DNA of 9,667 nucleotides from a virus (Duplodnaviria > Heunggongvirae > Uroviricota > Caudoviricetes), in the IMG/VR virus record IMGVR_UViG_2585427756_000015, one strand, 5' to 3'. The translations under genes and the position numbers were made by a program. How positions within the stretch are numbered: position 1 is the first letter of the stretch; every line of letters begins with the position of its first letter. Positions 1,984 to 2,671 of this stretch are shown here, piece after piece. The notes below the pieces were generated by a model that had not been told where the DNA came from, did not search any database, and saw only the letters and a list, made by a program, of their open reading frames with translations.

Positions 1984-2035
1984 GGATATTTATCAGGATT
2001 TATCGGTTTCTGAGCCCTGGATATGTTTATCAGTT

Positions 2036-2074
2036 CCAGCCTGTTGCCTCAGGCTGCTAACAGGTCAATACAAT
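2036..2074 (+). promoter_or_regulatory. Candidate promoter/operator for the plus-strand 90-aa gene: nested inverted repeats plus a -10-like TACAAT
   Basis: AGCCTG-TTGCCT-CAGGCT (2038-2055) and CCTGTT-N13-AACAGG (2039-2063) form overlapping inverted repeats. TACAAT at 2069-2074 with a weak -35 TTGCCT at 2044-2049 (19-bp spacer). GAGGA RBS at 2078-2082. Confidence 0.25.
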
Positions 2075-2088
2075 CATGAGGATTATTT

Positions 2089-2361
2089 ATGGACAATAAC
2101 ACCATTTCTCTACAGGAGTTGCTCGACAGCATTTCCAGGCTTCGGGAAGACGTGAATACCCTTACCGTCGCCTTCTCATATCTGGCATTCTCAATTCCAA
2201 GGGAACAGATGCAATCAACGCTGGCATCAATCCAGTTTGAATCATGCAATCCCAAATGGTCTCAGGAACAACAAGACTCTTTCAGGCGGCTTGCTGTATT
2301 ACTGGATGAAAAATATGCTGGTAAAATTACCATTTCGGCGGACTCTTCAGAGAACCCGTAA
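2089..2361 (+). CDS. Hypothetical 90-aa protein encoded antisense to the late/lysis operon
   Basis: Strong RBS GAGGA 6 nt before ATG 2089. Predicted soluble, helix-rich sequence. Converges on the minus-strand 114-aa ORF with a 35-bp 3' overlap. No family recognised. Confidence 0.45.
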   Translation: MDNNTISLQELLDSISRLREDVNTLTVAFSYLAFSIPREQMQSTLASIQFESCNPKWSQEQQDSFRRLAVLLDEKYAGKITISADSSENP

Positions 2362-2671
2362 TTATTCCCGGTAGTTTTCCTCTGTAGGTTATCAACACAT
2401 CCTGCGCCTCTAAAATTACGGGGCGCTTTTCCGGCGACTGCTCATCCCCTTCACATAACCCGGCAGCAACATCCAGGAAGACCTGTCTGATGCTCCTTCT
2501 GGCTGCTGCCTCATAAAACTCCAGCGCGGCACCTTCAACACGGTCCAGCGAGATGTCCAGGTCAAAAATTTCACCGTCAAAGCGTTTTTTGTCCCGTAAC
2601 GCTAAAGTTACCGTAACTTTATTCTCAAAATTGCGGATCCCTTTCACAATCAGTTTATAGTTTTGAGTCAT
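2327..2671 (-). CDS. Hypothetical 114-aa protein immediately downstream of the holin
   Basis: ATG at 2671 lies 4 nt after the holin stop, with GGGGAGAG serving as SD inside the holin 3' end. No family recognised. Confidence 0.5.
   Translation of the reverse strand: MTQNYKLIVKGIRNFENKVTVTLALRDKKRFDGEIFDLDISLDRVEGAALEFYEAAARRSIRQVFLDVAAGLCEGDEQSPEKRPVILEAQDVLITYRGKLPGIITGSLKSPPKW

Follow-up and report, generated by a model that had tools for sequence, protein, structure and literature searches.

What lies between the holin and endolysin genes of this prophage, and what is a gene doing there that faces against all of its neighbors? The question arose from a stretch of 9,667 nucleotides, the viral record IMGVR_UViG_2585427756_000015 (analyzed over its full length and hereafter called the window), which is the late region of an Escherichia coli lambdoid prophage. 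All late genes lie on the minus strand, and among these late-region genes only an open reading frame (ORF) of 90 codons, orf90 (2089-2361), lies on the plus strand. The original prediction described the ~690 bp that separate the holin gene (S) from the endolysin gene (R) as unknown cargo, made up of orf90 and of a convergent 114-aa ORF on the minus strand. This description suits the 90-aa gene; however, half of the segment turned out to be an ordinary YdfR-type gene. With moderate confidence, we read the locus as a resident YdfR-type gene joined by a mobile, antisense moron cassette of ~460 bp. The coordinates of all features are collected in Table 1.

The 114-aa ORF is a YdfR family gene

The start region of the 114-aa ORF is arranged exactly as predicted: the holin stop codon (2676-2678) is followed by 4 nt (TTCA) and then by the ATG, with a Shine-Dalgarno (SD) sequence, GGAGAG, inside the last holin codons. 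The accompanying claim, that neither protein of the segment resembles a known family, does not hold for this ORF. Its product matched the Pfam family DUF1327/YdfR (PF07041) over residues 1-111 with 142.6 bits against a cut-off of 25 (E = 4.5e-42) and phrog_406 over its full length, and carries the PGAP/RefSeq name YdfR family protein. Nor are S21-type holin and endolysin genes always adjacent, as had been assumed. In the Qin prophage of E. coli K-12 the order is essQ-ydfR-rrrQ, with a 4-nt spacer after the holin gene and with the ydfR stop overlapping the rrrQ start as ATGA, and a gene in this place is therefore ordinary.

Like K-12 YdfR (b1555), the 114-aa protein contains DUF1327, and its gene shares the position after an S21-type holin, the 4-nt spacer and the orientation. 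Unlike K-12 YdfR, it is 11 residues longer, its gene is free of any overlap with the endolysin start, and DNA of the orf90 cassette encodes its tail. The two proteins are ~80% identical over residues 1-74 only, the C-terminal ~40 residues being unrelated, and they are not collinear over their full length. A 2026 study found that residues 1-72 of K-12 YdfR bind the N-terminal domain of RNase E, its catalytic half, and that RNA co-purifies with YdfR (PMC13232886); by alignment, the part reported to bind is exactly the part that the 114-aa ORF retains.

A polymorphic insert of about 460 bp

When the window was aligned with K-12 Qin, homology ended at about codon 72 of ydfR and resumed about 12 nt before the endolysin ATG. 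On this alignment, the foreign part amounts to ~460 bp (roughly 1984-2460) and is made up of the final ~42 codons of the 114-aa ORF, the 90-aa gene and a spacer, which together appear to replace the last third of ydfR plus the ydfR/endolysin junction. The G+C content (GC) is 43-47% over positions 2000-2400, as against 51-55% over 1400-2000, on the endolysin side. The insertion is polymorphic: orf90 was detected in 1207 of the 5426 complete E. coli genomes (~22%), including the uropathogenic strain CFT073 and avian pathogenic E. coli (APEC) strains, and ~4400 carry parts of the flanks. Three deposited phages also have it, one of them an Stx2k phage.

At the endolysin end of the insert, the start codon had been said to have lost any SD sequence. 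Indeed, none precedes the ATG at 1983, yet nothing was lost in this respect, as K-12 rrrQ also lacks one; what was lost is the ATGA start-stop coupling to ydfR. The direct heptamer repeat noted before the endolysin start (ATTTATC-N3-ATTTATC) is present as described, at 1989-1995 and 1999-2005, and each copy lies within the longer direct repeats TGGATAT(G)TTTATCAG. The whole spacer accompanies orf90 into the Stx2k phage and into a genomic island carrying iha.

orf90 is under purifying selection

The 90-aa ORF with its strong GAGGA ribosome-binding site, and its convergent 35-bp overlap with the 3' end of the 114-aa ORF (2327-2361), were confirmed at the positions given. In a comparison of six E. 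coli-type alleles, the ratio of nonsynonymous to synonymous divergence (dN/dS) was 0.13-0.34 over codons 1-79, with dS reaching 0.57, and at least 0.9 over the last 11 codons in every comparison with synonymous differences. An exhaustive profile search and a second, word-indexed search recovered intact relatives of ~80-100 aa, at 25-45% identity, from Escherichia, Citrobacter, Atlantibacter, Yersinia, many Serratia, Sodalis, Chania, Gibbsiella, Brenneria and others, and the frame is intact in more than 100 cluster representatives from many genera. Both ORFs of the pair are intact, conserved and under purifying selection in diverged relatives, beyond what chance would produce, and orf90 is a real gene.

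In order to characterize its product, we modeled Orf90 with AlphaFold2 from 60 diverse sequences. The model has three helices (residues 8-35, 38-52 and 59-76), a disordered tail and no membrane segment (predicted local distance difference test, pLDDT, 82), consistent with a small, soluble, acidic, cytoplasmic helical protein. Searches of Pfam, NCBIfam, PADLOC and PHROGs with Orf90 returned only phrog_2411, a family of unknown function, and a 15-residue similarity to 'anti-silencing Mip' (E = 0.037), which was taken as noise. PADLOC-DB v2 gave no match at E <= 0.1 for either Orf90 or the 114-aa protein, and a Foldseek search of the PDB with a first, weak AlphaFold2 model of Orf90 (pLDDT 67) found no match. 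Library searching placed the 114-aa protein in DUF1327, and neither libraries nor structures gave a functional lead for Orf90; the notion of a moron-like plus-strand gene of unknown family gained support.

The cassette occurs in diverse prophage settings

The E. coli type of arrangement, with a DUF1327 domain, an S21 holin and/or a SAR (signal-arrest-release) endolysin, was seen in 122 fetched loci, these being every such locus whose contig reaches neighboring genes. Other settings differ widely. The orf90 homolog stands before a class I holin, a CHAP endolysin and Rz in Citrobacter (locus L004); between lambda-like tail genes M and L in two IMG/VR contigs (L090 and L091), where an Atlantibacter hermannii protein shares 92-95% identity with it; in Yersinia (L102) and in a metagenomic contig of unknown host (L107), between tail genes I and J; and between the cI repressor region and N in four further loci (L103-L106). 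In the Stx2k phage, a second holin pair and an M15 endolysin come after the cassette, in the place of a SAR endolysin. The segment of this phage (L150, phiSTEC1575-Stx2k, 1285-3303) runs from an S21-type holin through a 114-aa YdfR gene and orf90 to the second holin pair and the M15 peptidase; its mosaic boundary coincides exactly with what was the endolysin start codon, and the holin gene is immediately preceded by an iraM-like anti-adaptor gene.

In all of these prophage contexts, the orf90 homolog is antisense to the surrounding operon and converges on a small operon-sense gene, hereafter the partner, with an overlap of 7-47 bp. The same gene-plus-partner layout recurs in at least six different prophage settings, and the convergent pairing is not accidental. 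Additional scans of IMG/VR and metagenomes with distant family members yielded few new contexts. Because the positions of this mobile cassette vary so widely, a role specific to lysis is unlikely, and the suggestion that it regulates lysis timing fits poorly with its presence in tail genes, in the cI-N region and before unrelated holins, as well as with the stand-alone copies in Serratia and Sodalis.

Each of the two genes also persists without the other, and their linkage is not obligate. On many contigs from several Serratia species, the orf90 homolog stands alone on the chromosome, flanked by dinI and bssS and next to pyrC and solA (L092-L094, 5001-5285), and this copy is probably the best system in which to study the native function of the family. 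Sodalis likewise carries an orf90 homolog alone on the chromosome, and in E. coli islands a relative follows an AIDA-type autotransporter gene or sits beside iha, without a partner in either case. The iha copy came from a lysis cassette, since it retains the spacer and a remnant of the endolysin start. Conversely, Salmonella prophages carry an intact, constrained partner of 63 aa beside an orf90 reduced to its leader fused to codon ~58; next to the partner lies a distant DUF1327 relative, then a holin, lysozyme and Rz. An obligate toxin-antitoxin pair is therefore unlikely, and neither PADLOC nor toxin-family matches were found to sustain the earlier suggestion of a toxin/antitoxin-like pair.

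The 114-aa protein is probably a chimera

Free-standing partners measure 52-71 aa and have strong SD sequences, an N-terminal coiled coil, a polar tail and a common C-terminal motif. The motif takes the forms GELYSERITGSL, GKIRNEKITGSL, GNIFSEQIFGEL or GNVFTEQLSGEI, and the corresponding tail in the window reads GKLPGIITGSLKSPPKW. Written as G-x-[LIV]-x-x-E-[RKQ]-[IL]-x-G-x-[LI], it is common to the window tail and to the partners in Yersinia, Salmonella, Citrobacter, the Atlantibacter hermannii-type IMG/VR contig and the immunity-region loci. Partners evolve with a dN/dS of 0.20-0.43. Within the overlap of the E. coli type, the partner frame has a dN/dS of 0.2-0.65 versus at least 0.9 for the orf90 frame (informative comparisons). 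The most conserved partner residues face the least conserved end of orf90 or lie beyond its stop codon; hence the motif is not a shadow of orf90.

Three loci (L086-L088) carry the cassette between holin and endolysin genes without DUF1327, and in these the partner has become a short, frameshifted pseudogene, in which the tail frame can still be recognized. On this ground we read the 114-aa protein as DUF1327 fused to a partner tail. By sequence comparison, then, the 'YdfR family' protein of the window is probably a chimera, in which a DUF1327 domain is joined to a tail from an unrelated small gene.

Searches of Pfam and PHROGs with the partner yielded coiled-coil noise only (FlxA-like, SlyX, prefoldin), and a PDB profile search yielded nothing. 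An Sm/Hfq-like motif considered in the immunity-region partners was dropped, its sole support being a match to LSM12 at E = 0.11. DUF1327 itself is probably broader than the Pfam model. The distant DUF1327-like gene beside the Salmonella cassette (L108-L111, 4402-4653) was missed by Pfam and detected by BLASTP at E = 4e-5. The 238-aa partner in Citrobacter L004 (3239-3955) may also begin with a DUF1327-like domain, a reading from the sequence with no Pfam or BLASTP support.

Candidate expression signals flank orf90

Upstream of orf90 lies a candidate sigma-70 promoter. Its -10 element, TATGTT or TATTGT, is found in the cassettes of E. coli, Citrobacter, Yersinia and the Atlantibacter hermannii type, each time 6-9 nt ahead of TCAGCC, and in E. 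coli alleles TTTATC stands 17 bp upstream of the -10-like hexamer. A block (A/T)CCCTGG(A/T)TATGTT (2013-2027), which holds a Dcm site (CCWGG) together with the candidate -10, hardly varies at the left cassette boundary in the window, L004, L091, L101 and L150, whose flanks are wholly different. The TACAAT that had been proposed as a -10 element is present (2069-2074), but it is not conserved between alleles (CACAAT in L089, TAGCAT in L087) and its mRNA would start inside the SD sequence; we rejected it. LexA boxes, considered upstream of orf90 family members (the Serratia copy neighbors dinI), were also set aside, as only half-sites with two mismatches were present.

Both members of the nested inverted repeat reported before orf90 exist, the inner one being 7 bp long, one more than stated, and the outer one pairing CCTGTT (2040-2045) with AACAGG (2059-2064). 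Their interpretation as an operator did not survive, as the outer repeat is lost in L003-type alleles. The inner repeat would form a stem-loop at the predicted 5' end of the orf90 transcript. Predicted leaders all begin with a hairpin, located at the same position in L004, L085, L091, L102 and L150 (z -0.3 to -2.0 each), and their stems differ: CAGCCUG/CAGGCUG in the window, CGUCAGUG/CACUGGCG in Citrobacter, CAUCCAUG/CAUGGAUG in L091 and CACUCUAGCC/GGCUUGAGUG in Yersinia. Taken alone, the inverted repeat of the window is not beyond chance, and it gains weight only from these same-position hairpins in distant relatives.

Past orf90, ~43 nt beyond its stop codon and antisense to the EKRPVILEA codons of the 114-aa protein, the sequence could fold into a terminator-like hairpin. 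A G+C-rich hairpin occurs 3' of orf90, inside the partner ORF, in seven of eight lineages (z -2.2 to -5.3), and in six of these seven, the window included, it is followed by a T-tract (L085 is without one). The terminator scan missed the window hairpin because its tail consists of only 4 T. Read on the late strand, the hairpin has an A-run before it, and so it should not stop late transcription. A covariance scan with Rfam 15 over positions 1800-3100, on both strands, gave no match at E <= 1.

A model for the cassette and its rivals

We propose that the core of the cassette is a self-contained transcription unit that faces against the late operon, consisting of a weak promoter (TTTATC-17-TATGTT), a stem-loop leader, a strong ribosome-binding site, the 90-codon gene and a one-way intrinsic terminator. 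The unit converges on an operon-sense partner gene, whose coding sequence contains the putative terminator and overlaps the 3' end of orf90; in the window prophage only the tail of the partner would be left, fused in frame to DUF1327 to yield the 114-aa protein. In a lysogen, the orf90 promoter would be the sole active one at this locus, and Orf90 would be made as a lysogenic-conversion or accessory protein, which probably works by binding another protein and not on lysis itself. Upon induction, Q-antiterminated late transcription would cross the unit to produce the partner or fusion protein and the endolysin, and orf90 would then be silenced by collision and antisense pairing.

Several observations weigh against this proposal. 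A profile built from partners alone ranked the window tail first of 477 stop-to-stop frames (window plus K-12 Qin), but only at E = 0.22, and the case for homology between tail and partner is built on position and a motif of ~11 residues. That the pair is constant in prophages could point to a functional coupling, which the model treats as optional. The GC shift is modest. By consensus the candidate promoter is weak (3/6 and 4/6 matches), and a consensus promoter scan, which needs 4/6 matches per hexamer, reported none at orf90. The 56-nt leader of the window folds with z = -1.18 (21 of 200 shuffles fold as well), and its terminator hairpin, at z -2.15, is only marginally better than shuffles. 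As for function, the best hit of a PDB sequence profile search with Orf90 had E = 0.35, and fold and sequence searches gave no functional lead. The literature on YdfR, DUF1327, ybl58 and WP_000369850 gave only the RNase E interaction paper, with no reports of an orf90 transcript, protein or phenotype.

Other explanations of the locus give the pair a more definite task. The first we would turn to, though we consider it improbable, is a portable 'state switch': Orf90 would be present only in the silent prophage and the partner, or the DUF1327-partner fusion, only when the operon fires, and the two proteins would interact, Orf90 restraining the partner itself or a target from host or phage until displaced on induction. 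Were this true, the cassette would be a moron of a new class, one able to read the transcriptional state of the operon that hosts it, and it might link to RNase E via DUF1327. Next in our estimation, and also improbable, is a toxin-antitoxin-like, abortive-infection or superinfection-exclusion pair, in which one product is harmful or defensive, the other neutralizes it, and convergent transcription sets their ratio. The pair is kept in six independent prophage settings, always with the 3' overlap, both products are small, the L103-L106 site is where lambda carries rexAB, and exclusion activity is known for an antisense-overlapping gene pair of another phage (Fc02, PMC9936078). Yet orf90 has partnerless relatives in Serratia, in Sodalis and in the AIDA and iha islands, the partner is pseudogenized in L086-L088, and in Salmonella it stays intact and constrained beside a remnant of orf90; moreover, the genes are not co-directional, and neither a toxin/antitoxin match in PADLOC, NCBIfam or Pfam nor a DNA-binding domain was found. 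Mutual antisense control of the two genes, which had also been suggested, may nevertheless operate.

Regulation of lysis, whether by Orf90 or the fusion protein acting on the pinholin or SAR endolysin, or by orf90 RNA serving as antisense control of the endolysin, strikes us as quite unlikely. It would suit an insert between S and R, an endolysin gene with neither SD nor its start-stop coupling to ydfR, a candidate orf90 promoter within 50 nt of the endolysin ATG and a transcript that would pair with ~400 nt of the late mRNA immediately before the endolysin gene. Against it stand the cassettes placed in tail operons or immunity regions or ahead of unrelated holins and endolysins, the family members outside prophages and the modeled Orf90 structure, which has no membrane segment; any effect on the endolysin would be a positional side effect and not a conserved role. 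We regard as very unlikely a function in RNA decay, with Orf90 and the DUF1327 fusion acting together and the cassette adding a modulator of the YdfR-RNase E interaction. This idea draws on the reported RNase E binding, on the fusion of the cassette to DUF1327 in E. coli, on the DUF1327-like neighbor in Salmonella and possibly the start of the Citrobacter partner, and on the predicted stem-loop that begins the orf90 leader, 5' stem-loops being known to protect mRNAs from RNase E. However, the tail- and immunity-region cassettes have no DUF1327 neighbor, and the association may just reflect that both are common cargo near holins. Finally, it is extremely unlikely that orf90 is no gene at all but a chance open frame antisense to a diverged ydfR-endolysin spacer. 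The absence of a Pfam family, the antisense orientation and a 68-aa ORF on the opposite strand (2049-2255) would fit such a frame; the low dN/dS at considerable synonymous divergence, a frame intact across many genera at 25-45% identity, the strong SD sequence, the confident three-helix model, the PGAP annotation and a PHROG of its own argue otherwise.

Comparison with known systems

Morons of lambdoid phages, in the concept of Hendrix and Juhala, include genes such as lambda bor, whose transcription opposes that of the late operon and which is expressed from the prophage. The favored reading, a resident YdfR-type gene with a mobile antisense cassette, places orf90 among them: like these morons, it is an extra gene with a putative promoter and terminator between genes that are adjacent in related phages, with a GC below that of its flanks, an anti-late orientation and a variable position among related phages. 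The insertion at a gene junction and the deviating base composition expected of a moron were both found, and the hairpin 3' of orf90 is the predicted counterpart of a moron terminator. Unlike Bor, Lom and other known morons, to which it has no sequence or fold relation, it forms a convergent two-gene unit in which the partner ORF contains the putative terminator and which is here fused to a resident gene.

The type I toxin-antitoxin loci txpA/RatA and bsrG/SR4 of Bacillus subtilis prophages are convergent and overlap at their 3' ends. The orf90 pair resembles them as a convergent prophage unit with a 3' overlap and mutually antisense RNAs. It differs in that both strands are protein-coding and under purifying selection, no small hydrophobic toxin is present and the genes are separable, so that only the 3' overlap is shared. 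From type II systems it differs by its convergent genes, by the lack of a toxin or antitoxin domain and by not being inherited together. In Pseudomonas phage Fc02, the prophage gene olg1, expressed during lysogeny, overlaps gene 10 of the lytic operon on the opposite strand, and the pair gives superinfection exclusion (PMC9936078). Fc02 belongs to another phage group and shows no homology, and expression and phenotype data exist for it, whereas the orf90 pair is known from sequence. The lysis genes themselves resemble those of phage 21, with a PF04971 dual-start pinholin, a PF00959 endolysin with a G/A-rich N-terminus and Rz with an embedded Rz1; unlike the phage 21 cassette, S and R are ~690 bp apart and small ORFs also lie between R and Rz. 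The closest matches are K-12 YdfR, for the N-terminal domain only; the bor-type morons of lambda, in kind and not in family; type I toxin-antitoxin loci, in geometry only; and Fc02, by analogy.

The cassette is widespread and has relatives across the Enterobacterales, yet its products are annotated only as 'hypothetical' or 'YdfR family'. As compact cargo that moves between tail, immunity and lysis operons, it is a good candidate for a lysogenic-conversion, defense or regulatory function, and the probable chimera matters to anyone studying YdfR and RNase E. The endolysin gene, with neither SD nor coupling and behind ~400 nt of potentially double-stranded RNA, is in turn an oddity for lysis-gene expression.

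The prophage late region around the cassette

Table 1. Features of the window, in order of position.
Feature	Position	Strand	Remarks
IS3-family transposase fragment (rve domains)	42-488	plus	abuts Rz end (528)
Rz with embedded Rz1 lipoprotein	528-974	minus	
SAR-type endolysin, 175 aa	1456-1983	minus	Pfam PF00959; compared with K-12 rrrQ
Spacer, endolysin ATG to orf90 leader	1983-2033	plus	direct repeats TGGATAT(G)TTTATCAG (1983-1996, 2018-2033); ATTTATC twice
Candidate sigma-70 promoter	1999-2027	plus	-35 TTTATC 1999-2004, 17-bp spacer, -10 TATGTT 2022-2027; within conserved block CCCTGGATATGTT
Stem-loop CAGCCUG-N6-CAGGCUG	2037-2056	plus	CAGCCTG 2037-2043, CAGGCTG 2050-2056; predicted 5' end of orf90 transcript
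Shine-Dalgarno GAGGA	2078-2082	plus	6 nt before orf90 ATG; AGGA/GAGG kept there in other alleles
orf90, acidic three-helix protein (model), 90 aa	2089-2361	plus	phrog_2411; RefSeq WP_000369850.1 'hypothetical protein'
114-aa ORF	2327-2671	minus	ATG start
C-terminal ~42 residues of 114-aa protein	2327-2455	minus	ending GKLPGIITGSLKSPPKW; unrelated to K-12 YdfR
Terminator-like hairpin GCGCCUC-N9-GGGGCGC + UUUU	2404-2430	plus	hairpin 2404-2426; predicted dG -12.3 kcal/mol, z -2.15
DUF1327 N-terminal domain, residues 1-72	2456-2671	minus	homologous to K-12 Qin YdfR
S21-type class II holin (pinholin), 71 aa	2676-2891	minus	Pfam PF04971 Phage_holin_2_1, 111 bits; dual-start motif MYQMEK
SASA/NanS-like esterase	3042-4895	minus	
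tRNA cluster Arg-TCT, Arg-TCG, Met-CAT	5871-6120	minus	adjoins methylase fragment
N6/N4 DNA methylase ORF, truncated	6170-6496	minus	covers C-terminal part of Pfam model only
PP2C phosphatase	6607-7350	minus	
Ser/Thr protein kinase, eukaryote-like	7347-8186	minus	
Antiterminator Q	8258-8953	minus	preceded in the gene order by the DUF968 gene and RusA

The kinase and PP2C phosphatase genes are adjacent and overlapping, and lie directly 3' of the Q antiterminator gene. Between the esterase and holin genes, a strong terminator-like hairpin of 12 pairs followed by TTTTTTT (2931-2959, minus strand) would be encountered by late transcripts, which presumably must pass it via Q antitermination. The mechanically called holin ORF reaches upstream to 2969, and PGAP annotates the 216-bp form in identical loci.

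The endolysin has a G/A-rich N-terminal segment and counts 175 aa versus 177 aa in most relatives, owing to a 2-residue deletion at the end of its N-terminal hydrophobic segment (AAGAPDILD versus GAGASAPEILD). Beyond Rz, the closest full-length relative (L001) has small genes and the terminase where the window has the IS3 fragment, and the window prophage appears to be interrupted directly after its lysis cassette. Lastly, two small minus-strand ORFs lie between the endolysin gene and Rz, one of 71 aa (1117-1332) and one of 73 aa (971-1192); their matches are phrog_1115 and phrog_4906, neither of known function, and each has a hydrophobic stretch at its C-terminal end. These ORFs are further uncharacterized cargo of the lysis cassette.

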